Numbered from the stretch's first letter, positions 4,909-61,351 are shown. The stretch: 64,000 nucleotides of DNA from Candidatus Omnitrophota bacterium (GCA_021731625.1 JAKFXC010000058.1:815-64814); one strand, 5' to 3'. Numbers and translations are program-made. The notes: generated by a model not told the origin, from the sequence alone.

Positions 4909-4997
4909 AGCAGCCCAGCCGGTTGTCCAAACTGGTAAAACAGCCCGCGTTGTTGTAGACTTCCTACATGCCCCCAGACTTAAACTTAAAATGTGTT

Positions 4998-7900
4998 ATG
5001 TTTTGTGCGCTGGTTTGCTTTGGGGCTATGCCGTGCCTGCCCGCCCCTTTCGTGGTGGCTCAGGAAATGGTCGCGCTGCCGGCCCCCGGGACCAGGGTAC
5101 ATTTAAGCCCCGCGTTTGCGCCGCCGGTGCTTAAGGGAATCAAAATCCATCCGGATAATCCTTTCCGCATTGAGTTTGTGTTGTCCCAGGGGGACGCTGT
5201 GTTCCCGGAAGTAGATGCACTTAACATGGAACTCAAAAGGGAATCCACCAAGCTCATCAAATATTTTCTTGCTGCGCTGACCATTCCCGAAAAAGACTTG
5301 TGGGTCAATTTGTCCCCCTATGAACAAGACCGTATTGTGCCGGAATTTTTTGGCCAGACCGAAATGGGTCGGGATTTATTGACCCAGGATTATATGCTTA
5401 AACAGATCACCGCCAGTTTGATTTATCCTGAAGATGAGATCGGCAAACAATTTTGGAAACGTGTGTATGAAGAAGCTGGTAAAGAGTTCGGCACCACAAA
5501 TATTCCGGTCAACACGTTTAACAAAATGTGGATTGTTCCGGAACAGGCAGTCGTATACGAAAATGCCAAGTCGGGATCGGCATATGTGGTCAGATCAAAG
5601 TTGAAAGTCATGCTGGAGGCGGATTACTTGGCCCTGAATAAAAATGGCAGCGGCGCCGTGCCTCCGAAGGATGTCAATTCTTTGGCATCAAAAATCGTGC
5701 GCGAAATTGTCCTTCCCCAGTTGACCAAGGAGGTGAATGAAGGCAGGAATTTTGCCATGTTGCGCCAGATATTTCATTCATTGATATTGGCAACCTGGTA
5801 TAAGAAAAAAATCAAGGAAAGTGTCTTAACTCAGGTGTACAGCGACCAGCAGAAAATAGCCGGCGTTGACACTGATGATCCGTCGGAGAAAGAACAAATA
5901 TACCAAGGGTATCTGCAATCCTTCAAAAAAGGCGTTTACAATTACATCAAAGAAGAACAAGACCCTTTCAATCATCAAAGCGTTTCCAGAAAATATTTTT
6001 CCGGAGGAATGCAGATGGCGACGCCGTTGACAGTGACAAATGATCTTGCACATGAAGACAGAAACCCGGTTTTTGCCGGAGAGAAAAGATTTTTGGTGAG
6101 GTCAGATTTGGCAATGGCCGCCAAAGCCGCGACGTCAGAGAAATCCGAGCGATCAGATCTGCAAGAAAGGATAAGACGATTCAGCCTGGAGGTGGAGAGT
6201 TACGGTTCCGGCATGATGGACCCTTATAGCGTGTTAGGACGACGGTATAGCCTTACCCGTTACCAAATTGTGGAAATTCTCAAGGAATACGGGTATGAAA
6301 GAAATCATCTCATCGCTGTGGCGGCTATACAAAAGCAAAAAAAAGCCGAGAAAAGAAAACAGCAAAGGCTAAAGGCCCGCGCGCTTCGGATCAAAGAGGC
6401 CGTGTATGCCGCTGTGGACCGCATTGAGGGTTTTTCCGAGGCCAGGCGGAAAAATAAATACGAACTGATGGCCCAATTGTTTAGAAAGCATATTAAAAAA
6501 TTTAGAGGAGGAGCAAGTGCGTTCTTTTATAAAAATGGCAGGGTGACTGGGCTTGATAAAACGGGCAGCCCGTATGCCCTTATGAAATTCGTTTTCCCCC
6601 AATGTTTCGATGACCATAATCCCAAGCTTCTAAGTTTAGCGGACTTCCCGGTCAAAATCCATTTTACAAAAACCATGGCCAAGGCGGTTATTTTAGATGC
6701 GCTGGATCAAATCGATGGATTTGCACAGGCCAGAGCGGACGGGAATGTCCGGGTCATGAAAGAAAAATACCTTGAACATGTGAGAGGTTTTAGAAGGAAA
6801 GTCCGCGGTGGGTTCATTGAGGGTGACCTCGCTTATTTTAAACAATTCCCATTGGTGCGCAGAGTGATGAATAAAAAGCGGCGGTATTTAACGAGAAGAG
6901 ACAGTCCGTTGGCCCTATTGAAATTCGCACTACCCGCATTGGTTAATGACAAAAACCCGGACGCATTGAAATTGGCGGATTTCCGGTATTTGCATTTAAC
7001 AAAAAGGAAGGCCGTAAAACTGATTAATGACGGGTTGTCCACTATCAGAGGGTTTCAACTGGCCAAGGTAAAGGGCGATATCAAGAAGATGCGAGAACTG
7101 TACATCGAACACGTCATCGGGTATTTAGAGATCATCGATGGAAGGGTAGAGAGCGGCCAGCAGGCGTTCTTTTTTCGATTTCCGGCCATAAAGCGGTTGG
7201 TGTTTGAGAAACATGCTTTCCTGGGGAATGCGCACAGCATTGTGGCCTTGGTGAAACTCGCCGTGCCGCAGTTATTTGATCCCAAAAATCAGGAGGCGCT
7301 GACGGTGGCAGATCTATACCATCGGAAGCATTCTCCTGTATCCAGGTTGAGGATAACCATCAGAAGCGAATTTTATAAAATTTGGGGATTCCGCGAAGCC
7401 CAAAAACAGGGCGATGCCAGAAAAATGAAAGAACTGTTTTTTACTCATATTAAAGGGTATGCGAGGAGACAGAAGGAAACAGTGGTGGGCGGAACTCTGG
7501 CTTTTTTTGACCAATTTCCGGAGGCCCGAAAGTTGATATCGCCAACGGCGGCTGACTCAGCAAATCAATTCGCCTGCTGGGTCCTGGCAGGGCTTCCTTT
7601 TCCGGAATTAACAGATAAAAAAAATCCGCACGCTTTGCGTCTTGGAGATTTTGATGGCCAGTTTATTGTTTACAAATTTTCGGAAGTGCGTCAGGCCATG
7701 CTAAAGGCCCTTTACACAATCAAAGGGTTTGATTCGGCGAGGCATCTTGCTAAAGTTGAGAGGATGCAATCATTATATCAAAGGCACGTGCACAACTTTG
7801 AATCGTACAGCGGGGTCCGAGGTGAAAGGGCATTTTTCCGGCAAGTCCCGTTGTTAAAGAAAATAATTCCCTTAGAGAATTCACGATTGAAAGGGAAAAT

Positions 7901-8183
7901 AGAGTTGAAAGATTTACTCATGATGGTTGCGCCGCAAGTGGTTACGAGAATGGGGGACAGCGCCCAAATGGGCGGTATCGATTTGCAAGCAGACAAAGTA
8001 AACCTTGAACTGCAGAACTCCGGTCAGACAATTCAATTTAAAACCGACCCGGCCATGCTTAAGCAGCTCCAAAACGCCCCCGGTTTTGTGCCGGTCATTA
8101 TTGATGTCCAGCCCATGACTGATCTTAGACTTTTCCTCGGCTTGACAGACGAAAAGTCTTCCATAAAAGCGGCCGCTTCGTAA
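4998..8183 (+). CDS. giant exported repeat protein, paralog A of a family sharing N- and C-terminal modules with 48509..54967
   Basis: Signal-peptide-like MFCALVCFGAMPCLPAPFVVAQE. An N-terminal ~300-aa domain (KYFLAALTIPEKDLWVNLSPYE, LKQITASLIYPE, NEGRNFAMLRQIFHSLILATWYKK, RKYFSGG) is shared with the 2165-aa protein. There are five tandem ~112-aa repeats. The C-terminal module is GGIDLQADKVNL...NAPGFVPVIIDVQPMTDLRLFLG. Confidence 0.6.
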   Translation: MFCALVCFGAMPCLPAPFVVAQEMVALPAPGTRVHLSPAFAPPVLKGIKIHPDNPFRIEFVLSQGDAVFPEVDALNMELKRESTKLIKYFLAALTIPEKDLWVNLSPYEQDRIVPEFFGQTEMGRDLLTQDYMLKQITASLIYPEDEIGKQFWKRVYEEAGKEFGTTNIPVNTFNKMWIVPEQAVVYENAKSGSAYVVRSKLKVMLEADYLALNKNGSGAVPPKDVNSLASKIVREIVLPQLTKEVNEGRNFAMLRQIFHSLILATWYKKKIKESVLTQVYSDQQKIAGVDTDDPSEKEQIYQGYLQSFKKGVYNYIKEEQDPFNHQSVSRKYFSGGMQMATPLTVTNDLAHEDRNPVFAGEKRFLVRSDLAMAAKAATSEKSERSDLQERIRRFSLEVESYGSGMMDPYSVLGRRYSLTRYQIVEILKEYGYERNHLIAVAAIQKQKKAEKRKQQRLKARALRIKEAVYAAVDRIEGFSEARRKNKYELMAQLFRKHIKKFRGGASAFFYKNGRVTGLDKTGSPYALMKFVFPQCFDDHNPKLLSLADFPVKIHFTKTMAKAVILDALDQIDGFAQARADGNVRVMKEKYLEHVRGFRRKVRGGFIEGDLAYFKQFPLVRRVMNKKRRYLTRRDSPLALLKFALPALVNDKNPDALKLADFRYLHLTKRKAVKLINDGLSTIRGFQLAKVKGDIKKMRELYIEHVIGYLEIIDGRVESGQQAFFFRFPAIKRLVFEKHAFLGNAHSIVALVKLAVPQLFDPKNQEALTVADLYHRKHSPVSRLRITIRSEFYKIWGFREAQKQGDARKMKELFFTHIKGYARRQKETVVGGTLAFFDQFPEARKLISPTAADSANQFACWVLAGLPFPELTDKKNPHALRLGDFDGQFIVYKFSEVRQAMLKALYTIKGFDSARHLAKVERMQSLYQRHVHNFESYSGVRGERAFFRQVPLLKKIIPLENSRLKGKIELKDLLMMVAPQVVTRMGDSAQMGGIDLQADKVNLELQNSGQTIQFKTDPAMLKQLQNAPGFVPVIIDVQPMTDLRLFLGLTDEKSSIKAAAS
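6427..7960 (+). repeat. five tandem ~336-nt (about 112-aa) coding repeats inside the 1061-aa protein, each starting GF(S/A/Q/R/D)
   Basis: Each unit reads GFxxA..., then (L/M)Y/F..H(V/I)(R/K)GF, AFF..FP, LxKxxxPxLxDxKNPxALxLADF. Boundaries are approximate. Confidence 0.55.
7968..8183 (+). repeat. dispersed ~180-nt C-terminal-module repeat, copy 1 (about 80% nt identity to copy 2 over the conserved core)
   Basis: caaaacgcccccggttttgtgccggtcattattgat... compared with caaaacgcccccggctttgtgccggtcatcattaat... Confidence 0.6.
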
Positions 8184-12421: not shown

Positions 12422-12594
12422 ATTTTTCGTTTAGCGCTTTCCATCATTTAATATCAAGCGCTTACGTAATCTCCCCCTGATTATTCCTCCATTTTGGCAC
12501 CGCAATTGCTGCTTTGTATAGTAAGAGGTTGTACAGGATGTACCGGGACAATGACAGACAGCCACAAACAACAGGCTGTAACGAAAGGAACAAT

Positions 12595-15500
12595 ATGTTT
12601 TCCTCAATACGAACGATGATAACCATAACGCTGATCACCTTACTGATCGTGCCCCCGCAATATGCGTTGGCGCTCCCGCAAGGCGGGCAGGTGGTGGACG
12701 GCCAGGCCACTCTAACTTACGGGGCCGGCACCCTGGATGTCCTTCAACAAACCGATAAAGCCATTATTAACTATGACAGCTTCTCGATTGCGCAACCAGA
12801 GGCCGTGCATTTTCAACAGCCCAATTCTTCCAGTATTGCGTTAAACCGCGTCACCGGTGGCAATCCGTCCGAAATTTTAGGGACCTTGTCCGCCAATGGC
12901 CGGGTGTTTATTATCAATCCCAACGGCATTATGTTTGGCAGCGGGTCGCAGGTGGACACCGCTGGACTCGTGGCCTCTACTTTGGACATGGCCAACGCGG
13001 ATTTTATGTCCGGCAATTATCAGTTTGCCGGGCAGGGCGGCGCGGTCCTCGCCAATGGTCGGATCAATACGCCGGGCGGGTATGTGGCTTTATTGGGTTC
13101 GCATGTGGAAAATAATGGAGTGATCCAGGCGAATTTAGGAAGCATTGCCTTGGCATCCGGAGAGGCCATGACCCTCAACCTGGACGCGCAGGGATTTGTC
13201 AATGTGGTCGTCGATGCCGCCGCTTCAGTGAGTCCACCGTATCAAGCGGGAGTTGCCAATCGGGGGACGTTACAGGCCGATGGTGGACAGATTTTATTGA
13301 CCGCAAAAACACTGGATCATATTTTTGACCATGCCATTAACAATCAGGGCGTCCTTGAGGCCCGAAGCATTTCCGTTTCCCCCGGCCGGATTATCTTGTC
13401 GGCAGACAAAGACATTAAAGTGGGCGGCGACGTCAGCGGCGGGACAATCGATATCACTTCTACTGAAGAGGACGTGACCCATTTAACCGGAAACCGAACC
13501 ACAACGAGCGGGGAGAGTTTCACCGGTTCGGCGAAGAAAGATTATGTGCTCATGAATGACACTCAAATCAATGCCGGCGCGGGGGACATTGACATCCACG
13601 CCGGGCAAAATATTGAAATGGGTTCCCTGATCCCCACGACGTATGATGGAGCCAAGGTGACATCGACCCACAATGTCTTTCTGACCGCGGACCAGGGCCA
13701 CATCCGCCAGGCCAAGGGAGATATTTTTGCGGAAAATTTGATGCTCAATGCCAACTTAGGCATTTACGGCAGCAGCTGTATTCTAAATTGCTCCAGCCAA
13801 AATCTTGATATGTCCGGCATCCTGACAGCGGACAATCACTATGCTTTGTTTGTGGCGGACAGAGAAGGCAATGGCCTGAAATTCATCGGCCGCAATGAGC
13901 TAGGACCAGAGGGCAATCCGGGGGAGTTTAATTGGAATCTACCGGAAAGTTGGAATTTCGATGTCAATACCGGCGACCATCTGTATGTCCTGGCCTGGAA
14001 CACCAGTTTGCCTGGCATGTATATAGGTGATTTTACCTTGCCGGACACCAGTAAATTATTTAGCAATGCCACTCAATGGGAAAATTATGTCTCCGGGAAT
14101 ATTACTCCGGAAATCAACGGACTCCCGTCGTTCTCAAATCTCTCTGCCGAAATTGCGGCCGCAAAATGGAGTGCACCGCAGGCGTTCGTTGCTAATGGCT
14201 CACCGACCTGGGGCACGATTCCAGGAATCGACCCTGCCGCCCATCACATTTGGCACGACACGTTTGATTTGGGCACTCAGCAAGGGGGGCCAGAAGTCTC
14301 TTCCAGCTTTGGTCACTATGCCGTCTTTAGAACGGACGCAACGGTGTTATCTGGCCCGGCGCCGGTGATTGCCAACAGCGGATTGGTGGTGACAGCGGAC
14401 CACATCTCCGCCATCAATAAGTCCATCGGTGATATCAACCTCCACAATACGATTAGCGGAGAGGTGAATAATTTATCATCTCAAACAGGGACTAATCCCA
14501 CTGTGACGGGACAAAACGGCGTGACCAACAATGCTCCCGGAGGTTCCATCAACGTTACGGTCGACGGCGATCTGACTGTCAATGCCGACATTGTCGGTCA
14601 TGGCAACATCACTCTGACCACTGGCGATAATTTAGTGCAGAACAGCAATATCAACATTATCCAAAGCAATACCGTGATCCCGCCGCCCATCAATGTGCAC
14701 AGCACGTCGCACCAAACCGGTGTGTGGTCCAATGATGACACGATTGACTTGGAGTGGCAGTTAGCTCCTGAACAACCAGGCCGTTTCAGCTATACGGCGA
14801 ATACGACTGGCCAGTACACCATGAACACCGGTGCGGTGGTCAATACAACTAACGGGGACGCCACCATCACCAGCCAAGGGGATGTCACCCTGACCTTGGT
14901 CCATGCTGGCAATGGGGTGGCCACAGTCACCTCAACCCAAGGATCGATCATCGACGGTGATTTAAGTGTTTCCCCTGCCGACCAGGATGTGGCGGCACAC
15001 AGCATTCATTTAAACGCGCCTTTAGGTTCGGTGGGCAGCGTCGGACCTCAGCAAGAAATTGACTTAGGCATCCCGTACGGGTTCTCTCATTTACTCGATG
15101 AGAATACCTCTACCAATCCGGACGGCAGTATCGATTCCTTCACCTCCGCACTAAACGCACAGGGCGAATGGATCTACGCGACCTCGATCCACACTTTGTT
15201 AAACAGCGATCATTTGTGGTTCCATGTGGCCACCGTGGATCCGGTGTCGAGTCAGCAATCCACCTCTGCCCATGCCGGGCCTTACTTGATCGACACCATT
15301 GCTCCGGTGATTACAGCCGACTATGATCCCGCCAATCCATATGGTTGGTACAATTACGACGTGGATGTCCAATTCGACGCCACAGATAACTTGTCCGGAT
15401 TTGCGCCCCAGGGCAGTTTAGCCGCTAATCTTGGTTCACAGACAACCGCTGGGGAAGGTTTCGGATTGATGGTCACCTCGGCGGGAATTTTTGACCGCGC

Positions 15501-16329
15501 CGGCAATCAAGCCCTGCCGTTGTCGATCAGTCTCAACGTGGACAAGACGAAACCGATTATTACGGGCAGCAATGTTCCCACACCCAACCAATTCGGTTGG
15601 TTTAACCACGATGTGACGGTGGACTTTTCCGCGACCGATAATCTTTCCGGTTTTGCACCCAACGGGGCTTTAAGCAGCAATCTGTTATCGTCAACCACAA
15701 CCGGAGAAGGCGTAGGGTTGATCGTAAATTCAAGCGGGGTGGTGGTCGATCGCGCCGGCAACATCGCTGATCCTATTCAATACACGTTTAATGTGGATAA
15801 AACCGCGCCGATCATCACGGCAGGCAACCCCATCGGGCCTTTGAATCCCGATGGCACCTACCAATCGAGCGTGACGGTGCCGTTTTCCGCCACCGACAAT
15901 CTGTCCGGGTTTGCGCCCAATGGTTCGCAAAGCGAAAATCTAGCATCGAAAACCACCCCTAACTTCGGACAAAACTTGTTACTAACCTCCGACAGCACCG
16001 TGGATTTGGCCGGCAACCAGGCCTTACCGATCACGGTTGGTCCGTTTAACCTCGCGGCGGCGATACCGCCCATCGTGCCGCCGCCTACGAACCTAGTGGA
16101 TACTCTGGTATCATTTACCGACCGCCAGCCCGTCTACTACGAAATCCTGAGTCCCAGCCGTTTTGTCAGTTTCGAACCGGTGGTCAAGATTGGATTGCTG
16201 GCGTATCACCCGATAACGACGTTAGACACCACCGCGTTCGCGGAGGTGGATATGGACATTAGGGCCTTTGACTTTATCGATAATGCCATTGAGCAAAAGG
16301 GCAAAAAGTCGCCATATTTGGGATTTTAA
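12595..16329 (+). CDS. two-partner-secretion exoprotein TpsA (filamentous-haemagglutinin-like)
   Basis: Signal peptide MFSSIRTMITITLITLLIVPPQYALA. The TPS domain carries QTDKAIINYDSFSI, ALNRVTGGNPSEILGTL and RVFIINPNGIMFG (NPNG motif). A long repetitive beta-helix-like region follows, then three ~82-aa repeats near the C-terminus. The ATG at 12595 is preceded by AAAGGAAC. Confidence 0.75.
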   Translation: MFSSIRTMITITLITLLIVPPQYALALPQGGQVVDGQATLTYGAGTLDVLQQTDKAIINYDSFSIAQPEAVHFQQPNSSSIALNRVTGGNPSEILGTLSANGRVFIINPNGIMFGSGSQVDTAGLVASTLDMANADFMSGNYQFAGQGGAVLANGRINTPGGYVALLGSHVENNGVIQANLGSIALASGEAMTLNLDAQGFVNVVVDAAASVSPPYQAGVANRGTLQADGGQILLTAKTLDHIFDHAINNQGVLEARSISVSPGRIILSADKDIKVGGDVSGGTIDITSTEEDVTHLTGNRTTTSGESFTGSAKKDYVLMNDTQINAGAGDIDIHAGQNIEMGSLIPTTYDGAKVTSTHNVFLTADQGHIRQAKGDIFAENLMLNANLGIYGSSCILNCSSQNLDMSGILTADNHYALFVADREGNGLKFIGRNELGPEGNPGEFNWNLPESWNFDVNTGDHLYVLAWNTSLPGMYIGDFTLPDTSKLFSNATQWENYVSGNITPEINGLPSFSNLSAEIAAAKWSAPQAFVANGSPTWGTIPGIDPAAHHIWHDTFDLGTQQGGPEVSSSFGHYAVFRTDATVLSGPAPVIANSGLVVTADHISAINKSIGDINLHNTISGEVNNLSSQTGTNPTVTGQNGVTNNAPGGSINVTVDGDLTVNADIVGHGNITLTTGDNLVQNSNINIIQSNTVIPPPINVHSTSHQTGVWSNDDTIDLEWQLAPEQPGRFSYTANTTGQYTMNTGAVVNTTNGDATITSQGDVTLTLVHAGNGVATVTSTQGSIIDGDLSVSPADQDVAAHSIHLNAPLGSVGSVGPQQEIDLGIPYGFSHLLDENTSTNPDGSIDSFTSALNAQGEWIYATSIHTLLNSDHLWFHVATVDPVSSQQSTSAHAGPYLIDTIAPVITADYDPANPYGWYNYDVDVQFDATDNLSGFAPQGSLAANLGSQTTAGEGFGLMVTSAGIFDRAGNQALPLSISLNVDKTKPIITGSNVPTPNQFGWFNHDVTVDFSATDNLSGFAPNGALSSNLLSSTTTGEGVGLIVNSSGVVVDRAGNIADPIQYTFNVDKTAPIITAGNPIGPLNPDGTYQSSVTVPFSATDNLSGFAPNGSQSENLASKTTPNFGQNLLLTSDSTVDLAGNQALPITVGPFNLAAAIPPIVPPPTNLVDTLVSFTDRQPVYYEILSPSRFVSFEPVVKIGLLAYHPITTLDTTAFAEVDMDIRAFDFIDNAIEQKGKKSPYLGF
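15295..16050 (+). repeat. three tandem ~245-nt coding repeats (Ig-like ~82-aa units) in TpsA
   Basis: The units begin YDPANPYGWYNYDVDVQFDATDNLSGFAPQG, PNQFGWFNHDVTVDFSATDNLSGFAPNG and DGTYQSSVTVPFSATDNLSGFAPNG. Confidence 0.6.
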
Positions 16330-16413
16330 GGTGTTTTGAGCAGCATCGTAAGTGCTTGATATTTCACAAGATTTACTTGTGCTTAAAAACAAAAAAATAT
16401 TGTAACCCATTTA

Positions 16414-16443
16414 TTGGCAACGGTTTGCATTACATGCTATACT
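16414..16443 (+). promoter_or_regulatory. candidate sigma70-type promoter for tpsB (TTGGCA, 18-nt spacer, TATACT)
   Basis: Hexamers read by eye. The -10 element lies inside the left arm of the hairpin below. Confidence 0.3.
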
Positions 16444-16491
16444 CCCTTTGAGTGTAGGGCAGGTTAACGTGGCATCAAAAAGGGAGTATAG
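16437..16491 (+). promoter_or_regulatory. perfect 13-nt inverted repeat whose right arm contains the tpsB ribosome-binding site
   Basis: CTATACTCCCTTT, then a 29-nt loop, then AAAGGGAGTATAG; the tpsB ATG is at 16493. Confidence 0.5.
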
Positions 16492-16492
16492 A

Positions 16493-18205
16493 ATGAAAAA
16501 CATTCTTTTTGTTTTTTTAGGTGTTTCTGTGTTGGTCGCCGCCCCTTGGGGGGGAGCCCAGGCCCAAGTGAGCTCCGATACGGTGGGGGGTGTGATTCAA
16601 AGGGAATTAGATAAGGAAAAGTCGTTAGAATTCGAAGAACGCATCCGCACCAAGCAACCTCAACCGCAAGACGAAGAAATACAGCCTAAGAGCACTGCAG
16701 AAGCAGGCCCCAGCGTTCTCATTAAGGAAATCAAGGTGGAGGGCGCCACTCTGCTTTCAGATCACATCATTGATGACATAACCACACCATATAAGGGAAC
16801 AGAGCTGAGTCTGGCCCAAATCCAGGACATCGCGGAGAAACTCACCGCGGTGTACCGCACGAACGGGTATGTCACCTCGCGGGCATATATCCCTCCTCAA
16901 AATCTACAGGAGGGGACCTTAACCATTAAAGTCATCGAAGGCAAAATGGGGGAGCTAACGCTCAAGGGAAACAAATATTTTAGCAAAGCGGTGTATTTGA
17001 AATATTTGAAGCTAAGGCCCAATGAATATTTTGATTACAGCCAGCTGCAGAAGGACTTGACCTTCGTCAATGAGCAGGAAGACCGCAAACTCAAAGCCAC
17101 CTTGGTGCCCGGCCAGGAAGCCGGAGCGACGGATGTGATCCTGGAAGCCCAGGAGCAACTGCCCATCCACGCCACCGTCGAGTTTGACAATTGGGCGTCG
17201 CGCTACTTGAATCATTACCGCTATGCCCTAAGCTTGGAGCACAATAATATCACCGGCCATGACGACCGTATGCTGTTTAAGTATCAAACCAGCGATGGAC
17301 TAAACCTAAAATTGTATCAGGGCCGCTACCTCTATCCGCTGAGCAAGAAAACCACCGTCGGGGTGCATGGGTTATACACCACCACGCATTTGGGACGGGA
17401 ATTTAAGTCCCTGGGTGCGGAGGGCAAAGGCCAGGTGTATGGGATGTTTATGAGCCATGAGCTTGCCCGCACAAATAATGCCCAATGGCATTTTAATTTG
17501 GGGTATGATTATAAGGACATTAAGAACGATCTCTTGGGCATCGAAAATTCGCATGACCAACTCAGCATCTTCAAGGCGGGCATGGACCTGGATGTGGCTG
17601 ACCCTTGGGGGCGCAATATTTTGACCGGGGAAGGGGACTTTGGGGTGCCGGAATTTTTAGGGGCTATGGAGGCCAAGAACGATCGGCACGCCTCCAGGAC
17701 CGGGGCCGGCGGGCAGTTTCAAAAAGGCGTGTTTAACTACTATCGTCTTCAACCCATGCCGCTGGACACCCAGATCCTGCTTAAAAACAGCGCCCAGATC
17801 AGCAACCAGGCCTTGGTGTCCGCCGAGCAGTTTCAGATCGGCGGCCCCACCAGCGTTCGCGGCTATGCGCCGGGGGAGTTTTCCGGCGACAAAGGACTTT
17901 ATTCCGCGGTGGATTGGTCGGTGCCCTTGTATTTCGTCCCCAAACATTGGAAAGTTCCCCTGCGCAAGGAAACCGTGTATGATGCCATGCGCCTGGTGGC
18001 CTTCTACGATTTTGGGTTTACCAATATTAAGAACGTCACCGCCGGGGAACGGGAAAACCGCACCTTGAAGGGTTACGGGTTCGGGGCCCGGTTTAATCCT
18101 GATCCGAATTTAGAAGTCCGTTTTGAAATGGGGATGCCGATCGGGACCGCTTCGGCCGACGGCAAGCGGGCCCATCCGTGGGTGCAGTTTAAATATAAGT
18201 ATTAA
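16493..18205 (+). CDS. TpsB outer-membrane transporter (ShlB/FhaC/HecB family, Omp85 superfamily)
   Basis: Signal peptide MKNILFVFLGVSVLVAAPWGGAQAQ. POTRA-like IKEIKVEGATLLSD...LTIKVIEGKMGELTLKGNKYF. Beta-barrel with a C-terminal ...WVQFKYKY. The track ORF starts at 16448 with TTG; the ATG at 16493 has an AAGGGAG RBS. Confidence 0.75.
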   Translation: MKNILFVFLGVSVLVAAPWGGAQAQVSSDTVGGVIQRELDKEKSLEFEERIRTKQPQPQDEEIQPKSTAEAGPSVLIKEIKVEGATLLSDHIIDDITTPYKGTELSLAQIQDIAEKLTAVYRTNGYVTSRAYIPPQNLQEGTLTIKVIEGKMGELTLKGNKYFSKAVYLKYLKLRPNEYFDYSQLQKDLTFVNEQEDRKLKATLVPGQEAGATDVILEAQEQLPIHATVEFDNWASRYLNHYRYALSLEHNNITGHDDRMLFKYQTSDGLNLKLYQGRYLYPLSKKTTVGVHGLYTTTHLGREFKSLGAEGKGQVYGMFMSHELARTNNAQWHFNLGYDYKDIKNDLLGIENSHDQLSIFKAGMDLDVADPWGRNILTGEGDFGVPEFLGAMEAKNDRHASRTGAGGQFQKGVFNYYRLQPMPLDTQILLKNSAQISNQALVSAEQFQIGGPTSVRGYAPGEFSGDKGLYSAVDWSVPLYFVPKHWKVPLRKETVYDAMRLVAFYDFGFTNIKNVTAGERENRTLKGYGFGARFNPDPNLEVRFEMGMPIGTASADGKRAHPWVQFKYKY

Positions 18206-48338: not shown

Positions 48339-48508
48339 CAGTTTGTACCGGAGACGTGGGTGACACAATCTCCGGTGCGATGAACGAGGCCGCCCAGACC
48401 CAGCCAAATGGCGGGGTCTTCTAAGAGCCGCACATAGCCCCACATAGCCTTGAATAGCATCTAAATATAGTGCATACTCTATACTGTATCCGTAAACTCA
48501 TCACACGT

Positions 48509-51500
48509 ATGCGCACTGACTTTAAAAGCCTCCTTTTTTCCAGAACCCTATGCCTTGGATTATGCCTTTTAATAGCCATAGGCCAAGGGCCGGTCTATGC
48601 CCAGACTTTGTTTATCAACAGTCTGCCTCCCCCGGGGGACATGCTATCTTTGTCAGCAGACTTTACGCCTGTGGTACTTAGAGGTGTGGTGGTTCATCCT
48701 GACAAACCGTTGAATTTTGATTTCGTTATCGACGCGGGTAATCATACGACTGATCCAAAGATTCTCAGGACCGAAGGCGAGCGCATGGTTAAGTATTTTT
48801 TGGCGGCGTTAACCGTACCCTCCAAGGATTTATGGGTCAACTTATCACCTTATGAGCATGAGCGCATTATTTCTAAGGAGCTTGGTGACACTGAGCTTGG
48901 TCGAGACATGTTGGCGCAGGATTATGTGCTTAAGCAGCTGACCGCCTCGCTTATTTATCCTGAGAGAGGTTTGGGTAAGAAGTTTTGGGACAAGGTATAT
49001 GATCAGGCAAGAACAAGGTATGGCGTCACCAATATTCCCATGCAAACATTTAACAAAGTTTGGATTACTCCAGCCTCCGCTGAGATCTATGAAAAAGATA
49101 ATACGGTCTATGTGACTAAGGCAAGGCTCAAGGTCAAGTTGGATGAGGATTTCCGGTCGTTGACAAGAAATAAAATAAACACAACAGGAGCTCACGCTTT
49201 AACTCCCCAAGTCTTAAGACAAGTTATCATTCCCGCTCTTGAAAAAGAAGTCAACGAGGGAAAGAATTTCGCCTCGTTGCGTCAGATTTACCATGCCACT
49301 ATTTTGGCCAAATGGTATCGTCAAGCCATCACAAAATCCCTGCTTTCTCGTTTTTATATCGACAAGAATAAGATCAAGGGCATTGACCTCGATGATAAGA
49401 CGATCAAGGAGCAAATTTACGAACGTTATATAAGGGCTTATAAAAAAGGGGTCTTTAATTATATTAAAGAAACTCCCATGCCCAATGGCCAACTGGCACC
49501 AAGAAAATATTTTTCAGGCGGAATCTCTCAACTTGATCAAATTCCATTTGATCATGCACAAACAGTGGAGATTCCTACTCAACCTCATTTTGTTATGAAT
49601 GTGGAATTAGATGCACCTGCCATTGCAAACCCAGCCATGACCCCCGATCTTAATTTTGCTATGACTTCTTTTTGGGATGATTTCGCATTGGATCGACCCG
49701 TCGACTCGTTGGTCCAGGGAATTCTTTATATGGAGAGTCGGCTGATACCCGGTCCTCATTATGAAATGGAGTGGGGAATGCGGCAAAGGATCATCGACGC
49801 ACTTGGTATTTTGAATCAAAGGCTGAAAAAGAAAGGAGGGAAGAGAACAGTAGATTTTTTGAAGGCCCTTCTTCGGGAAAATAGTCCCGTTTATGAGAAG
49901 AACCCCGATGTCCAAGAAACGATCGGCCGTGTATTGGTGTTTCTCGACCAAGAGGCGGGAAAGCAAGTAACTGAGGACCATCGTTTATTGAAGGAGGCTC
50001 TGCAGATCATTTACCCTAACCTGCCCAAGAAGAGTATAGATCAGATCTACGGCAATCTAGAACGCGAGGACAGTCAGGTTTCAGAGAACGATATGAAGAT
50101 ATATACTCTCTTTAAAAATCGGAAATCGGATTTGCTTTTACGTAATCAATTTGTTTTGGACAGAATTTTTTCTTTACCTGGTGAGGAATTGGAAAACTTA
50201 ATCAAAAATTTTAAGGAGATTGACAGTCTGTTTGCGCACAGCGGTCTTGTGGATCCTTTGGGAGAGTATGTGCAGCTGGCGTATTTAATGGAAATGATTT
50301 TGCCTGATGTTGCGGTCAACTATCTGAAAGGTTTATATTTCAAAAATGGTGGAATAAAGGTTGTGATGAGATTTTTGGACAGCAAGAGGTCCTTTTTGCT
50401 CAATGATGGAGCATGGATGGAACTTAGAAAGCTGCTGAGAAAGATGAAAGAACTTAACGGTAAAAGCCGAACCTATAAGCTGGATACGAATTTCTATAAA
50501 ATGTTGAATTTAGCTTCTGCATTTTTGGACCTGGGAGGACCGGAAAAATTAAGCGCTGCTTTAGAATCGGTTGTCCCTTCAAAGAATCAAATAGACGTAG
50601 CTAAACAAATGGAAAGTATACTGCTCAAACAAATGGCTGAATTTTTGAACATCACATCAATTTCTATAAAACCGAATATCCAGGAAAAACTCTACATGCC
50701 ATATTTGTCGAGGATCCGGGTTGCCCTAAAGTATATAAAGGATGAAAAACCTTGGAAGCTCGACAGATTTAAGGCTTTGATTAGAGCCACGTTAGAAGAT
50801 CGCTTTTGGAATTTTATTGAAGACGAGAGTCAATCTGATGAAGAAGGAGCAGAGATTGCCCAGCATAACAAAGGCGTCCGGAAGGCTTTAGCGAAGGTGG
50901 GTATCAATGTGGACCGTTGGCTGGGCAAACAATTGGAGTCCAGGTTACCGGAGGAGAGGTTTACCTTTGGCCAGAATTCATTTATCATCCGGCCTATATT
51001 CCGCAGACCTGGTTATGATGTCTTTCTAGGGGATTTTACAAATTGTTCGGTAGGTATGAGTTCCAATCAGTATCCGGACGGGATGATGGAAAGGCTCATC
51101 GATGAGGGACTCAATACAATTGAAGTTATTGATGAAAGCACACAGAAACCTACGGCTGCAGCTTGGTTATTTGTTGCCGAGGATGGGAGTGTTGTCATTC
51201 AAAATTTGGAAGCCAATACCAATTATGAAAGTGATCCATCGTTAAAGAATTATCTAGGTGAGCAAATGGTGGCTTATACGATGAAATTCGCGAATCATGT
51301 AGGTACGAACCTCCTCCTAATAGGAGATGCGGTACACGGAAAATACTGGGAACAACGTGGGAAAGCCGGGTTTGTCATTGACCATTACGGCAAGAACAAA
51401 GTTAAGTTTGGCTTGGAGAAAATAGGCGGCTATCTTGGAGAGAAATATTACCTTACATCAGCCGGAGAGGAATATGCTTATCTCGTTACTGATTTTGCCA

Positions 51501-54500
51501 TGTACGTTGAGAAAGTTTCAGCCATGCAGGCCGTATCAAAAGCTGCCAGTCCAGCTATGGTAGTTTTCGAAGGCGCTCAGAAAATCACCCCTGAGGAAAT
51601 GGAGGGAGACAGCAAGATTTTAAGCACTTATCTGAAAAAAGAGAACATGGGAGATGTTGACGAAGCTATGAAGTCCAAGGAAACTCAATTGACCCAAATT
51701 ATCAGGGAAAACATTACTGGCAATGTCTCTATCACTTTAAACGAATTGGCTGTAGAGGCGGGGTTTGACGACCCTGCTAATAAAACTTTTCAACGGGTTC
51801 TTCTCAAATACCTTCAAACGATACCTAAAACTATTCTTCATGAACATGTTTCCGGCGTTATTTTCCCGGAAGATTTAATTAGATACTTTTTGGATGATGA
51901 ACCCTCCAAAGAAGAATTTACTGCTGATGAACGTCAAAACAGATTGGAAGCCCGCCGTGAAGCCAGACGGCGATTTGTTTTAACCGTTGATTCCCGCAGA
52001 AGCGGGATCGATTTGCAAGCCAACCCAGTGAATCCCAATAATAGTCAAGAAGAAGCAGACCGTGCTTTTCGAGAGATTTTGGAACTGCCCCAGAAAGTTC
52101 CACTAACTTTAAACGACATTAATTTGCCTAATACCGTTAAAAAACTGAAAATTTTTGTAACCTATAAAGATAAAAATGTCGATTGGAATAACTTTGAACG
52201 CGCTTTTGCTGTTATTAAAACTGTAACAGATGCGCACCCAAGATTTCGCTATGAACTCTTAAGAGAAGGTGTATTGCGGCATTTTAATCAAGACAATGTC
52301 CGTAATCTTGAATTAACCGATTTTCATAGCCAGTCGCTGGGAGAGCTCTTGAAAGAATTGGTTTCCATTGAACAGCAGCTTCATGGGGCAATGACATTGT
52401 CGGTTTTGAAAGCTTTTCGGAAAGATTATTTGGAACGGGTTTTAAAGCAGGCTGAAAAAAATGAGGACTATAGACAAGAAGTGTTTAAGCGGTATCAGGG
52501 GCAGTCATTGGATGAGGTTAAAGAAAGCATTTTCAGAGAAACTTTAAAAATGGACCAACAGTATTTTAAATTGGATCGGGAGAAAATAAAAAAAGAATTC
52601 GAGGAGGCCATCGAGCAGATCAAAGAGAATCTTAACATAGAAAAGAAGGAACAAGTCACTTTAGAAGATTTACGCAATCGGCTTATATTTGCCCTTGAGG
52701 CCCGTAAGTTAGCTTTGAAAGAAGCCAAAGATTTCGAGACAGATCTTAATCGACTAGAACTTAACGAGCCGCTCTTGCGTAAGCGTATCGGCGGTATCAG
52801 CAGCATCGGAAATGAAACAGGCTATATCAATTGGGTCGGCTCTCCTATTTTGCGTAACGCCCGCCGGATTGGGTTAAAGATTTCTTCCCATATGGGAGAA
52901 GTTTGGGAACCGAGCCAGTATGTGACGTCTTTAAAACGCATTAAATATGAAATTGAAAATGGGGTTAACCGACTCGCTCACGTGACGGTATTAGGATTGG
53001 ACTATGGACCATCAACGCGCATCCCAATATCTGAACCGGAGCGAATCGACGCTCAAAAACTTCAGGAAGAAATATTTAGTCTCCTGCTGCGGAATAATAT
53101 TCATATTGAACTTCAGCCAACCAGTCAAATCATTACCTCTGCCGATTTTAACGATTACAAAGGTCACATCATTAGGAAATTTTTTAAAATGAACAAAAAT
53201 GGCAGTGGTCTAAGTTTTTCTATTAATCCTGATGACAGCAGCATCTTCGATACCTCTTCCTCGCAAGAAGAACTTGCTGTTTGGCTCGCCAACCCGGAAC
53301 TTCCCTATTCAGTTCTGAGTCAAACGTTTCTTATGGCTAATGATGCCAGATTTTATGAGTCACCCCGCCGGGTCAAAAGACGATTGAGGAATGAACGGCG
53401 AAAGGTTTGGGCAGCGATCAAAGGTTTTAATAAACCCATTCAACGTCCCGCTATCGTAGTCATTGGGAGCGCGCGTATCCCTGATGGCGGTCCACAAGAA
53501 GAGACAGGACGAGAAATTGGGAAATTGGCTTGGGAAAATAGTACAGCGATCAAAACCGGAGGCGGTCCGGCAGCTATGAAGTGGCCTTTGGAAGAGTTCA
53601 TTAAGTCTAGAGAAGACCGTTTCAGAGCCCTGCGCAAACGAGGCTTATCTATACCTGACAACGTTCCAGTTCAGTCCATTAATGTGTTGGTGAATACGTT
53701 CGAACCCGAAAATAAATCTCTGGAACAAAATTATATGTTTCGCCATTTTGTATTCCGGAAATTAGGGCTACATTTAAACGCGCTAGGGCTTATCGGCATT
53801 CATGGCGGTCTAGGAACATGGGATGAAATTTTTGAAGGCTGGCGGCGTCGACGGGAAATATCGTTGATCGGAGAAAGTTACTATAAGCCTATTCTTGATG
53901 TGTTAAAAGATCGCTGGGAATTTGCGGGATTACTAGATCGTGTGGACTACTGGCCATTTGTGACTAACAGCAGCGAGGAAGCCTTTTATCACATCCTTGA
54001 CCATGCCGATAAACACAGAGTCATAATTCCAACTCAGAAACAAACAATGGCAGTCATCAAAGAAATGGAAAACGGCATCGACAAATTATCCGCGCTACCA
54101 CGGGCGGTCGTTATTCTGGGAAAGCCGGAAGATAATGCGTATGGACGGACGGTTCTTAATCAACTCAATGGTATTATTTCTCCGATTTTTAAGATGAAGG
54201 TTCCTGTCCGTATTGCTAGCCGTGGAATTATTTTGGGATCGGTTCTTAAGCAGGCACAGCAGCTTCGAGCGGAGTCGGTTTTGCAAGCTGTTCTGTATAA
54301 GAAAGAGGAAGTCGAGGGGCTTGTCCCAAGCGAACAGTATGTCAAACAGCATTTACCAGGGCAAACCCTATTTCTCGAAGATGATTCTAATCACCAGCTG
54401 CTGCTGACGTATGATGCGCGTGGTTATATTGTTTTGCCTGGGGTAGTTGGAATATTCAATAAACTTTTTGATATTGTGGTGGCCATGCAAACCGGCAGTA

Positions 54501-54967
54501 TACGCCGTAAACCAATTATTTTGGTGGGGCGTGAATTTTGGGAACCGATTTTAAAAATTTTGAAACAAACAATGGAGAATTATGACCCACCTTTAGTGTC
54601 TAAAGGCGATTTTGAATTGATGACAATTATTGATACACCTCAAGAGGCCACTGAAGAATTGGCCTTAAACGGCATTGGTGAAAGGACCGATGCCGCGATG
54701 ATGGGGACAGGAAACCGGGCCATGAACGACACCATCCATACAGGCCGAAAGCAAGACTTTGGCGGTATTGATCTTCAGGCGGACAAAATAAATCTGCACC
54801 GCCAAAATGATGGGCAAGAAATCAACGTTCATGCTGACCCAGCCATGATCGAGCAATTTCAAAACGCCCCCGGCTTTGTGCCGGTCATCATTAATATTCG
54901 CCCCCTGACAGATATTCGTATGTTCCTTGGCATCAATAAAGATCAGACCCACCCTAAAACAGGGTAA
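48509..54967 (+). CDS. giant exported multi-domain protein, paralog B (2152 aa from M14): shared N-domain, adenosine/AMP-deaminase-like domain, two LOG-like domains, shared C-terminal module
   Basis: Signal peptide MRTDFKSLLFSRTLCLGLCLLIAIGQGPVYA. The N-domain is homologous to 4998..8183. ADA-like motifs with correct spacings: LHEHVSG (HxH), SSHMGE (HxGE), RLAHV, ITSADF. LOG-like 1: VVIGSARI...TGGGPAAM...LIGIHGGLGTWDEI. LOG-like 2: LPGVVGIFNKLFD...KPIILVG.EFWEPI. C-terminus GGIDLQADKINL...NAPGFVPVIINIRPLTDIRMFLG. Confidence 0.6.
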   Translation: MRTDFKSLLFSRTLCLGLCLLIAIGQGPVYAQTLFINSLPPPGDMLSLSADFTPVVLRGVVVHPDKPLNFDFVIDAGNHTTDPKILRTEGERMVKYFLAALTVPSKDLWVNLSPYEHERIISKELGDTELGRDMLAQDYVLKQLTASLIYPERGLGKKFWDKVYDQARTRYGVTNIPMQTFNKVWITPASAEIYEKDNTVYVTKARLKVKLDEDFRSLTRNKINTTGAHALTPQVLRQVIIPALEKEVNEGKNFASLRQIYHATILAKWYRQAITKSLLSRFYIDKNKIKGIDLDDKTIKEQIYERYIRAYKKGVFNYIKETPMPNGQLAPRKYFSGGISQLDQIPFDHAQTVEIPTQPHFVMNVELDAPAIANPAMTPDLNFAMTSFWDDFALDRPVDSLVQGILYMESRLIPGPHYEMEWGMRQRIIDALGILNQRLKKKGGKRTVDFLKALLRENSPVYEKNPDVQETIGRVLVFLDQEAGKQVTEDHRLLKEALQIIYPNLPKKSIDQIYGNLEREDSQVSENDMKIYTLFKNRKSDLLLRNQFVLDRIFSLPGEELENLIKNFKEIDSLFAHSGLVDPLGEYVQLAYLMEMILPDVAVNYLKGLYFKNGGIKVVMRFLDSKRSFLLNDGAWMELRKLLRKMKELNGKSRTYKLDTNFYKMLNLASAFLDLGGPEKLSAALESVVPSKNQIDVAKQMESILLKQMAEFLNITSISIKPNIQEKLYMPYLSRIRVALKYIKDEKPWKLDRFKALIRATLEDRFWNFIEDESQSDEEGAEIAQHNKGVRKALAKVGINVDRWLGKQLESRLPEERFTFGQNSFIIRPIFRRPGYDVFLGDFTNCSVGMSSNQYPDGMMERLIDEGLNTIEVIDESTQKPTAAAWLFVAEDGSVVIQNLEANTNYESDPSLKNYLGEQMVAYTMKFANHVGTNLLLIGDAVHGKYWEQRGKAGFVIDHYGKNKVKFGLEKIGGYLGEKYYLTSAGEEYAYLVTDFAMYVEKVSAMQAVSKAASPAMVVFEGAQKITPEEMEGDSKILSTYLKKENMGDVDEAMKSKETQLTQIIRENITGNVSITLNELAVEAGFDDPANKTFQRVLLKYLQTIPKTILHEHVSGVIFPEDLIRYFLDDEPSKEEFTADERQNRLEARREARRRFVLTVDSRRSGIDLQANPVNPNNSQEEADRAFREILELPQKVPLTLNDINLPNTVKKLKIFVTYKDKNVDWNNFERAFAVIKTVTDAHPRFRYELLREGVLRHFNQDNVRNLELTDFHSQSLGELLKELVSIEQQLHGAMTLSVLKAFRKDYLERVLKQAEKNEDYRQEVFKRYQGQSLDEVKESIFRETLKMDQQYFKLDREKIKKEFEEAIEQIKENLNIEKKEQVTLEDLRNRLIFALEARKLALKEAKDFETDLNRLELNEPLLRKRIGGISSIGNETGYINWVGSPILRNARRIGLKISSHMGEVWEPSQYVTSLKRIKYEIENGVNRLAHVTVLGLDYGPSTRIPISEPERIDAQKLQEEIFSLLLRNNIHIELQPTSQIITSADFNDYKGHIIRKFFKMNKNGSGLSFSINPDDSSIFDTSSSQEELAVWLANPELPYSVLSQTFLMANDARFYESPRRVKRRLRNERRKVWAAIKGFNKPIQRPAIVVIGSARIPDGGPQEETGREIGKLAWENSTAIKTGGGPAAMKWPLEEFIKSREDRFRALRKRGLSIPDNVPVQSINVLVNTFEPENKSLEQNYMFRHFVFRKLGLHLNALGLIGIHGGLGTWDEIFEGWRRRREISLIGESYYKPILDVLKDRWEFAGLLDRVDYWPFVTNSSEEAFYHILDHADKHRVIIPTQKQTMAVIKEMENGIDKLSALPRAVVILGKPEDNAYGRTVLNQLNGIISPIFKMKVPVRIASRGIILGSVLKQAQQLRAESVLQAVLYKKEEVEGLVPSEQYVKQHLPGQTLFLEDDSNHQLLLTYDARGYIVLPGVVGIFNKLFDIVVAMQTGSIRRKPIILVGREFWEPILKILKQTMENYDPPLVSKGDFELMTIIDTPQEATEELALNGIGERTDAAMMGTGNRAMNDTIHTGRKQDFGGIDLQADKINLHRQNDGQEINVHADPAMIEQFQNAPGFVPVIINIRPLTDIRMFLGINKDQTHPKTG
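54758..54967 (+). repeat. dispersed C-terminal-module repeat, copy 2
   Basis: About 80% nt identity to 7968..8183 over the core. Confidence 0.6.
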
Positions 54968-55248: not shown

Positions 55249-55353
55249 GTGTAAAAGAATTGCTTAAAAGGTTGAATCCAGTTTCAAACGATACTAGGAT
55301 GATTATAGTTCAAAGTCTTTAATAGAATATTTTAATTTCTTTTGGAGAAAACA

Positions 55354-61197: not shown

Positions 61198-61216
61198 AAT
61201 AATTACGGCTGACAGA

Positions 61217-61351
61217 ATGAATATCGAAACCCGAATGGATTCTCGCTTGCGTGGCATTAACGGTAAGGGTATTAAATTTAAACTCGACCCAGCCATGGTT
61301 GAGCAATTGCAAAAGCCGACCGATATCCAGATGTTCCTTGGTATTTTATAG
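61217..61351 (+). pseudogene. degenerate orphan copy of the shared C-terminal module (remnant, different frame from the upstream gene)
   Basis: ...RGINGKGIKFKLDPAMVEQLQKPTDIQMFLGIL compared with the paralog C-termini ...DPAMIEQFQNAPGFVPVIINIRPLTDIRMFLGI. Nucleotide-level similarity with an internal deletion. Overlaps the lexA 3' end. Confidence 0.4.

Follow-up and report, generated by a model that had tools for sequence, protein, structure and literature searches.

Constant N- and C-terminal modules around unrelated cargo in a multi-copy protein family of Omnitrophota

Two long open reading frames in a 64,000-nucleotide stretch of DNA from an Omnitrophota bacterium (the window; all features below lie on its + strand) raise the question of why proteins with unrelated interiors should begin and end alike. 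An initial annotation had described them as giant paralogous proteins with swapped middles and had suggested an analogy to polymorphic effectors. Judged by sequence similarity, the two frames, ORF A and ORF B, are members of a very large, multi-copy and hitherto undescribed protein family, and the taxon of this family is, by the labels of its matches, almost exclusively Omnitrophota.

Two open reading frames with shared ends

ORF A (4968..8183) encodes 1071 aa from the ATG at 4968, with alternative starts at 4998 and 5028. The start first assigned to it, 4998, does coincide with an in-frame ATG but is ambiguous, the public gene call (P0197, 1051 aa) beginning at 5028. ORF B (48509..54967) encodes 2152 aa from the ATG at 48509, the start originally chosen and identical to that of the public call P0277; the mechanical ORF opens at a GTG at 48470 (2165 aa), and the ATG suits a signal peptide better. 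BLASTP reproduces the shared ends that the initial annotation had proposed, with every quoted motif present, as an N-terminal block (A 9-348 against B 28-352; 160/341 identities, 47%; E 1e-100) and a C-terminal block (A 996-1069 against B 2092-2165; 41/74 identities, 55%; E 2e-23). No further significant alignment between A and B was found outside these blocks; the interiors are unrelated, as claimed. The nucleotide identity of about 80% attributed to the C-terminal module applies to a 65-nt core running from DPAM to PVII (80%) but not to the module overall (69.5%).

ORF A opens with a hydrophobic window predicted to be a Sec-type leader (MPPDLNLKCVMFCALVCFGAMPCLPAPFVVAQ; 4968..5063). This is followed by the N-module (5064..6008; BLASTP), which ends in RKYFSGG and for which AlphaFold2 gives a model with pLDDT 80.2 and pTM 0.81. 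Downstream (3′) of the N-module is a short junction motif, DLAM (6105..6116), and the cargo beyond it (6357..7949) comprises five tandem repeats without a family match. These repeats, noted initially, are real, with units of 96-113 aa and pairwise identities of 22-36%. The frame closes with the C-module (DSAQM-GGIDL...DPAMLKQLQNAPGFVPVIIDVQPMTDLRLFLG; 7950..8162; hmmsearch 116 bits), and a Kyte-Doolittle scan gives no strongly hydrophobic segment past the leader.

The same parts recur in B, where the predicted Sec-type leader (MRTDFKSLLFSRTLCLGLCLLIAIGQGPVYAQ; 48509..48604) was assigned by hydrophobicity scan and sequence inspection and the N-module (48605..49522; BLASTP and tblastn) again ends in RKYFSGG. 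Junction motifs NPAM and NFAM (49628..49663) follow. The cargo contains a weak adenosine-deaminase-like stretch, under the Pfam cut-off (52853..53269), and a LOG or "lysine decarboxylase"-like Rossmann domain matched in two stretches, the better of which (54284..54658) scores E 1.3e-18 with PF03641 and E 1.6e-15 with TIGR00730. Upstream (5′) of the C-module (54740..54952; hmmsearch 110 bits) are the motifs DAAM and NRAM (54689..54724). Past its leader, B has one borderline hydrophobic segment by the Kyte-Doolittle scale. A second, internal C-module (SGIDLQANPVN, aa 1175-1191) was considered and rejected, its score of -1.8 bits not being significant.

A decayed remnant of a third C-module (GINGKGIKFKLDPAMVEQLQ-KPTDIQMFLGI) resides at 61202..61345, directly 3′ of the stop of a 1951-aa ORF and in a different frame from it. 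The remnant has neither GGIDL nor the invariant APGFVPVII core, and is detected by tblastn (E 1.7e-5), by hmmsearch (22.7 bits, profile positions 28-47) and by DNA alignment. The neighboring 1951-aa ORF has a sub-threshold match to Dockerin_1.

Extent, gene plan and cargo of the family

Homologues of the N-module number more than 1,166; of the 17 named matches, 16 bear an Omnitrophota or Omnitrophica label. For the C-module, a search of 1.84 billion representatives gives 3,198 matching clusters (50% identity level). Family genes occur at 79 genome loci, several per genome and some in tandem. A and B are not a private pair of paralogues; members are spread across the phylum. The strings GGIDL, PGFVPVI, RKYFSGG and WVNLSPYE are absent from the relevant literature.

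The order of parts is a Sec-type leader, an N-module of ~320 aa, the cargo and a C-module of ~65 aa. At the genome loci, 61 complete ORFs carry an N-module at the start and a C-module at the end, and full-length N-modules score E of 1e-129 or better with the family HMM. Sampling by way of the C-module only gives 59 ORFs whose 5′ end is intact; of these, 47 contain the N-module, and two further ORFs of that sample are genes split into N and C parts. The leaders are predicted from Kyte-Doolittle hydrophobic windows and the family consensus: most members have an N-terminal hydrophobic segment and then an AQ-type site, the consensus being a hydrophobic region, AQ and then LPAPG. Cargo length ranges from 0 to more than 2,600 aa, the lower extreme being P0067, a cargo-less member of 438 aa whose neighbors are other family genes. 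Across the neighborhoods of the 79 loci there is no conserved partner gene (the best neighbor family occurs in 5 of 79) and no linked secretion-system or ABC, MFP or TolC gene.

Exchange of the interior, as first proposed, is borne out by 63 family proteins, in which the cargo is unrelated in 1,943 of 1,953 member pairs (10 have cargo similarity), even where the N-modules are ~80% identical. Recognizable cargo consists mostly of cytoplasmic-type enzymes, with Pfam matches to methyltransferases, GGDEF, sugar transferase, PLD, PPDK_N, HAD, GNAT, NDK, DnaJ, starch synthase with GT1, AAA_5 and LOG; TPR and HEAT also occur, whereas nuclease or deaminase toxins are not what the cargo comprises by Pfam. 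A strongly hydrophobic segment is absent from 48 of the 63 cargos. Much of this cargo requires cytoplasmic cofactors (SAM, ATP or GTP, Hsp70) and would therefore be ill suited to the periplasm or the surface unless it acts inside another cell.

Both sides of the cargo are marked by D-x-A-M, a protein-level motif enriched ~17-27-fold, with 1.69 occurrences per 1,000 aa in the family versus a background-ORF rate of 0.06 and a compositional expectation of 0.10. Its hot spots lie 1-60 aa past RKYFSGG and 0-25 aa ahead of GGIDL, and within the window it is confined to A and B, where the flanking motifs, including N/Q variants, are DLAM and DSAQM, and NPAM, NFAM, DAAM and NRAM, respectively. It also occurs between blocks in long cargos and, as DPAM, inside the C-module; its position is variable, and it is sometimes repeated at a spacing of 8-12 aa. 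The methionine of the motif is often the cargo's own start methionine, and it is directly followed by intact-looking Tat or Sec leaders in L020, L052, P0012, L030 and L011. The initial annotation had overlooked this motif. Several nucleic-acid-level explanations were rejected: codon usage at synonymous positions is normal and upstream positions carry no information, contrary to a DNA or RNA signal; words resembling Shine-Dalgarno sequences are no commoner than at other internal Met codons, contrary to an internal start; and there is no DNA-level signal of a recombination site. Programmed readthrough or splitting at the junction was likewise discarded, as a stop inside the motif occurs only in L007, a single gene split exactly there (D-stop-A-A-M), and the in-frame stops or frameshifts in L133, L053 and L121 lie away from the junction and look like errors or decay.

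Neither module has a match in Pfam, NCBIfam, PHROGs, PADLOC or PDB sequence searches, by single sequence or by profile, in agreement with the original impression that no recognized domain is involved. The N-module, which directly follows the leader and closes with RKYFSGG, is predicted to be alpha/beta, and its modelled fold is unrecognized; no protease fold or family was found in it. Its best-conserved stretch, DLWVNLSPYE.DRI...LKQ, is polar and resides in a loop modelled with lower confidence. The C-module (~65 aa, GGIDL...DPAMLKQLQNAPGFVPVIINIQP...FLG) was aligned from a restricted sequence set; MAFFT misplaces short C-module fragments amid cargo-bearing sequences. In all 291 instances (144 + 65 + 82) no more than 29 aa, and as few as 0, separate its end from the stop, with a median of 3-5. 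In the AlphaFold2 model of P0067, it forms one short helix and coil at low confidence (pLDDT about 38-68) and is not docked onto the N-module. By the Kyte-Doolittle scale the C-terminus has no hydrophobic 19-mer, the hydrophobic run FVPVIINI being only 8 residues long. A minority of C-module genes have neither N-module nor signal peptide, among them a HIT-like enzyme (L159:580-1635) and L005:13259-15262. Of the 55 proteins in the representative library that bear the C-module and reach 600 aa or more, 14 are without the N-module, and many of these may be fragments.

Candidate functions of the constant parts

The strict C-terminal position of the C-module is what would be expected of a position-dependent signal, and the module may, as first suggested, act in secretion or anchoring. 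We tentatively favor, at somewhat less than an even chance, a family of Sec-dependent cargo-carrier cassettes whose C-module serves as a recognition tag that depends on its position; the order of parts is read directly from the genes, and the mechanism would run as follows. The N-terminal leader would send the whole chain through Sec, and the N-module, as the constant domain, would carry or handle it. One conserved partner, encoded elsewhere, would then read the C-module, which is nearly invariant (LQNAPGFVPVII) and probably for the most part unstructured, and would retain the protein at the surface or pass it on. The D-x-A-M flanks may be recognition or cleavage sites that delimit, and possibly release, the cargo, although cleavage there is purely conjectural. 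New members could arise by capture of a whole ORF between the constant ends, as suggested by the frequent identity of the motif M with the cargo's start Met and by the intact-looking Tat or Sec leaders directly after it. The leaderless C-only genes argue against a simple periplasm-to-outer-membrane signal; if their products are functional, the tag would be read in the cytoplasm, or would serve for docking rather than as a periplasmic sorting tag.

Such a cassette has partial counterparts in known systems. T9SS cargo of Bacteroidota likewise comprises dozens of unrelated proteins per genome, each with a Sec leader at its N-terminus and, at its very C-terminal end, a conserved module (CTD) that serves as a sorting tag for machinery encoded elsewhere. 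The T9SS CTD, however, is a folded beta-sandwich of 70-100 aa, whereas the C-module is shorter and modelled, at low confidence, as coil; T9SS cargo also lacks a constant 320-aa N-module and D-x-A-M flanks and belongs to another taxon, and CTD profiles (Por_Secre_tail and related; Pfam and NCBIfam, E<=0.1) match nothing over the last 80 aa of A and B. Cellulosomal enzymes resemble the family in being many secreted enzymes that share one conserved C-terminal docking module of ~65-70 aa, the dockerin. This is a duplicated calcium-binding fold (PF00404) that tolerates internal positions, which the C-module does not; Pfam gives no Dockerin_1 match in A or B, and we know of no cohesin-like partner for the C-module. 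Sortase- or exosortase-type signals (LPXTG, PEP-CTERM, GlyGly-CTERM, PGF-CTERM), which combine a short motif, a hydrophobic helix of transmembrane length and a basic tail, were not found, the C-terminal helix and an NCBIfam match both being absent, and the C-module, at ~65 aa and without a Pfam match, is far from an autotransporter (T5SS) barrel of at least ~250 aa.

It could instead be that the N- and C-modules form one functional unit, for instance a surface-coat or envelope protein, on which inserted cargo is displayed as a passenger while the constant parts do the work; the ancestral form would be the cargo-less P0067. The existence of this minimal protein next to other family genes, the coupling of both modules in ~80-95% of genes and the high conservation of both ends are consistent with such a scaffold, which we nevertheless consider unlikely, given that the C-module, modelled at low confidence as mostly coil, is not docked onto the N-module by AlphaFold2, that C-only genes occur and that an obligatory extreme C-terminal position is more signal-like than half-domain-like.

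Rather unlikely, in our estimation, is a polyprotein cleaved at D-x-A|M, whether the N-module acts in cis or a dedicated protease preferring Ala at P1 is involved, so that cargo is freed with its native N-terminus, working Tat or Sec leaders included, and fusion would mean co-expression rather than co-export. Proteases that prefer Ala at P1 include signal peptidase I, LexA and birnavirus VP4. The recurrence of the motif on both sides of the cargo and between blocks of long cargos would fit such processing, as would the leaders that begin at its M, the polar conserved stretch in a lower-confidence loop of the N-module and the split gene L007. Yet the N-module matches no protease fold or family, cutting at the DPAM inside the C-module would ruin the conserved tag, a linker motif would account equally well for the variable positions and the 8-12-aa repeats, and L007 is a single case, other in-frame stops being elsewhere. 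A comparable layout exists in the MARTX toxins of Vibrio and relatives, whose constant ends surround variable cytoplasmic-type effector domains freed by inter-module processing; unlike the family, these have long glycine-rich repeat ends, are exported by T1SS with no Sec leader and are processed by a cysteine protease domain of their own, located internally, and neither the glycine-rich A/B/C repeats nor that domain has a Pfam or NCBIfam match in A or B.

One-step secretion resembling T1SS appears improbable. In this scheme an ABC exporter would recognize the C-module, in the cytoplasm, as an uncleaved secretion signal, and the N-module would serve for retention or anchoring. The scheme would spare cytoplasmic-type cargo from folding in the periplasm and would suit a tag confined to the last ~65 aa and modelled as unstructured, the leaderless C-module proteins and the C39 and ABC-related domains reported in giant Omnitrophota proteins (10.1101/2023.11.21.568195). 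LapA-type RTX adhesins offer a similar arrangement, with an N-terminal retention module, a variable middle, a C-terminal secretion signal and release via cleavage at a short Ala-containing motif, but they have RTX repeats and no Sec leader, and their TAAG motif is cut by LapG encoded nearby. Most family members, in contrast to T1SS substrates, possess a canonical N-terminal hydrophobic leader, RTX repeats are absent (no HemolysinCabind match in Pfam) and ABC, MFP and TolC genes are not linked.

A family of polymorphic toxins or effectors, as suggested initially, each with its cognate immunity gene, is very improbable and largely refuted by the absence of immunity-like neighbors. Conserved trafficking ends around enzymatic payloads of high variability, the presence of several copies in a genome plus a remnant and the supposedly predatory or parasitic habit of Omnitrophota (PMC10066038) might speak for it. 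However, the variable part lies in the middle and not, as in CDI, Rhs, LXG and other such systems, at the C-terminus, no conserved or small gene lies downstream (top neighbor family, 5/79 loci), PADLOC gives no match and the cargo (TPR, HEAT, DnaJ, methyltransferases, glycosyltransferases) is not toxin-like.

Significance for Omnitrophota

The plan of the family suggests a general protein export or display route in tiny, host-dependent bacteria. Omnitrophota are widespread, uncultured and ultra-small, and presumably live on other cells or prey on them. A more far-reaching version of the cargo-carrier reading, doubtful at present, is that N-module, D-x-A-M flanks and C-module constitute a new phylum-wide sorting and processing system: a universal cassette for the export, surface display or delivery to host or prey of almost any protein, captured ORFs with their own leaders included. 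On this view the C-module would represent a novel type of C-terminal sorting signal, D-x-A|M would be a processing site not recognized before, and the same grammar may underlie giant multi-enzyme proteins. The giant Omnitrophota proteins ("Archaeovorins" and relatives) come from the same phylum and, like the family, have N-terminal leaders, behind which the same cytoplasmic-type domains are strung together: methyltransferase, GNAT, HAD, LOG, PPDK_N, GGDEF, AAA_5 and starch synthase with GT1. They comprise 10,000-147,000 aa with many transmembrane helices, and published descriptions mention neither of the modules nor D-x-A-M (10.1101/2023.11.21.568195, 10.64898/2026.06.07.730766). Against that scale (at least 10,000 aa and many transmembrane helices), A (1071 aa) and B (2165 aa) are giant only in a relative sense.

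Since current annotation labels all family proteins hypothetical, the N- and C-modules deserve profile models. The family gives the question of how Omnitrophota handle their unusual exported and giant proteins a concrete handle, in the form of a tag to mutate, a motif to seek in proteomes and a profile for finding the cognate machinery. Should the flanks prove to be cleavage sites, the family would consist of bacterial polyproteins of a previously undescribed kind; should the tag prove to be a sorting signal, the few bacterial systems for C-terminal sorting would gain a new member, and a candidate effector list for Omnitrophota would follow.

Two proteins with constant ends and exchanged middles

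Two forward-strand ORFs in the window, A (4968-8183, 1071 aa) and B (48470-54967, 2165 aa), match by BLASTP only in their two end regions: residues 9-348 of A with 28-352 of B (47% identity, E 1e-100), and 996-1069 with 2092-2165 (55% identity, E 2e-23). Between these regions there is no alignment; the middle of A comprises five tandem repeats (96-113 aa, pairwise identity 22-36%), and that of B contains two stretches that resemble LOG (PF03641, E 1e-18) and one with a sub-threshold resemblance to adenosine deaminase. The shared terminal blocks, unrelated interiors and five repeats described in the initial annotation are thereby reproduced, as is its start for B, which is most likely ATG 48509, the same position as in the public gene call P0277; for A, 4968, 4998 and 5028 are all possible starts. 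The figure of about 80% DNA identity between the C-terminal modules holds for a 65-nt core (80%) and fails over the whole module (69.5%). Within B, SGIDLQANPVN (51992-52033, residues 1175-1191) resembles the start of the C-terminal module without reaching significance (-1.8 bits). In the C-module profile search, a few database members have a second, internal partial match, in two stretches.

HMMs built for the head (N-module) and tail (C-module) and run on all ORFs of the family loci reveal a fixed plan, with the N-module first and the C-module at the extreme end of 61 complete ORFs, separated by 259-2,609 aa. An independent sample of metagenome contigs picked by the C-module contains 47 genes with both modules, two in which a frameshift or stop separates them, and some 10 pieces with the C-module only, mainly short remnants. 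The C-module obeys a positional rule, lying 0-29 residues (median 3-5) from the stop in 291 of 291 instances. One member, P0067 (438 aa), consists of leader, N-module and C-module, with no variable middle, or cargo. Genuine C-only genes also occur, at L005:13259-15262 and directly 5′ of P0067. The latter belongs to three successive C-module genes (L159:580-7425), which encode a 351-aa HIT/GDPGP1-like enzyme with neither leader nor N-module, P0067, and a 1110-aa member with N-module, cargo and C-module; all three share a divergent form of the tag, GFNGFTPVI.

Searches with the N-module yield more than 1,166 homologues (E<=1e-3); identity is 50-68% in the top 120, and 16 of 17 named homologues are labelled Candidatus Omnitrophota or Omnitrophica. 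Among 1.84 billion cluster representatives, the C-module profile has 3,198 matches at E<=1e-3 and 1,561 at E<=1e-10. On contigs from one genome per species there are 79 N-module loci, labelled in their records as Omnitrophota/Omnitrophica (51), "uncultured Planctomycetales" (25) or other (3, including one Phenylobacterium and one Candidatus Elulimicrobium). The Planctomycetales-labelled loci come from third-party MAGs and contain close members (50-70% identity); mislabelling or misbinning of Omnitrophota contigs probably explains these and the Phenylobacterium and Elulimicrobium loci. Several genomes each account for four to nine of the loci, and members often lie in tandem, as pairs or triplets. 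The window proteins are unnamed in the public record of the 68.9-kb NCBI contig.

Cargo and the D-x-A-M junction

Cargo is freely exchanged: in 63 family proteins, the N-module is common to all 1,953 pairs and cargo similarity is confined to 10, a dissimilarity that persists at ~80% N-module identity and between tandem neighbours. A minority of cargos are recognised by Pfam (methyltransferases, GGDEF, sugar transferase, PLD, PPDK_N, HAD, GNAT, NDK, DnaJ, TPR, starch synthase with GT1, AAA_5), and this repertoire overlaps the domains reported for giant multi-enzyme Omnitrophota proteins. A strongly hydrophobic segment is absent from 48 of the 63 cargos.

The cargo is flanked by a protein-level motif, D-x-A-M, with 1.69 occurrences per 1,000 aa in family proteins versus 0.06 in background ORFs of the same loci and 0.10 predicted by composition. 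It clusters 1-60 aa past the N-module end, RKYFSGG, and 0-25 aa ahead of GGIDL, forms part of the C-module itself (DPAM), and is repeated within long cargos; in the window it occurs only in A and B, plus one spurious antisense ORF. At the DNA level, synonymous positions follow ordinary codon usage and there is no conservation upstream, and Shine-Dalgarno-like words precede 10% of these sites, compared with 11% of other internal Met codons and 26% of likely true starts.

In several members, the M of D-x-A-M directly precedes an intact-looking twin-arginine or Sec leader (MSSDMGRRQFLSKLGIAIAG, MKRVVSRRKFLKTASLGG, MLAFMNRSTLAITFMVSVLINVSGDAYA), suggesting that whole ORFs were captured at the start codon. 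Such internal Tat (RRxFLK) or Sec leaders are found at the cargo starts of L020, L052, L030 and L011 and in P0012. A 2026 preprint on giant proteins (10.64898/2026.06.07.730766) dismissed internal signal-peptide calls as chunking artefacts; these calls may be real features like those following D-x-A-M. In a single case (L007:2251-2295), a family gene is split exactly at the motif (D-stop-A-A-M): the ORF for the N-module terminates in ...GKEGEKD-TAA, after which come, in the same frame, GCC GCG ATG and an ORF for cargo and C-module, with an AAGGAG-like word upstream. Other in-frame stops of family genes (L133, L053) lie outside the junction motif.

Module structure and genomic surroundings

At the N-terminus of most members, a positively charged stretch is followed by a hydrophobic segment, an AQ-type site and LPAPG, the anatomy of a putative Sec leader. 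The N-module is confidently modelled by AlphaFold2 (pLDDT 80.2, pTM 0.81, 122-sequence alignment) as two long β-hairpins and several long helices, with its most conserved stretch, EKDLWVNLSPYEKDRI, in a lower-confidence loop. The C-module consensus is GGIDL-x(~20)-IKFH-x-DPAMLKQLQNAPGFVPVIINIQP-x3-L-x2-FLG, in which ten successive residues, NAPGFVPVII, are invariant across the alignment; the P0067 model shows it, at low confidence, as a short helix plus coil, undocked from the N-module.

A two-partner secretion pair (12514-18205, forward strand), consisting of a 1271-aa TpsA-like protein (TPS secretion domain, E 6e-40) and, after it, a 585-aa TpsB (ShlB/FhaC with POTRA), together with Lnt (30909-32387), indicates a diderm envelope. 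Family genes are surrounded by housekeeping genes, in the window those for a CCA-adding enzyme, a Cys/Met-metabolism PLP enzyme, enolase and LexA. Directly 5′ of B, between it and housekeeping genes, is a PD-(D/E)XK endonuclease gene (47877-48338, forward strand; PF11645, E 3e-37). There are no linked partners: each neighbouring gene family occurs at 5 of the 79 loci at most, so any partner must be encoded elsewhere. A six-frame search of the window located a third, decayed C-module (61202-61345, forward strand) that lacks GGIDL and the APGFVPVII core. Because this remnant lies just past the stop of a 1951-aa ORF and in a different frame, this may be where a family gene was lost or displaced. 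The ORF (55342-61197, forward strand) encodes an exported protein with M6/M11-like metalloprotease, Big_3_5, CHB_HEX_C and two LamG domains; a dockerin match is sub-threshold, and the N-module is absent.

A possible carrier system

From this architecture we infer, tentatively and in every mechanistic step, a Sec-dependent carrier system. In it, the chain would be handled or anchored by the constant N-module; one conserved partner, unlinked to the family genes, would read the invariant and apparently unstructured tag at the C-terminus; and D-x-A-M would set the bounds of the cargo, with release there possible. The main difficulties for this scheme are the leaderless C-only genes and the cytoplasmic cofactor needs of much cargo, and these keep three alternatives alive: a display scaffold in which the N- and C-modules form one unit, a polyprotein cut between the A and M of D-x-A-M, and a one-step route like that of T1SS. 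A polymorphic-toxin reading, close to the polymorphic-effector analogy of the initial annotation, is largely excluded.

In its logic the family comes closest to T9SS cargo with its C-terminal domain, MARTX toxins, dockerin-tagged cellulosomal enzymes and LapA-type adhesins, and every defining feature of these for which the tests were decisive is absent. In the literature that could be searched, three Omnitrophota genomics papers among it, the N-module, C-module and D-x-A-M are undescribed. We therefore place the family outside known kinds, with the reservation that it may prove to work on the well-known principle of a C-terminal sorting tag.
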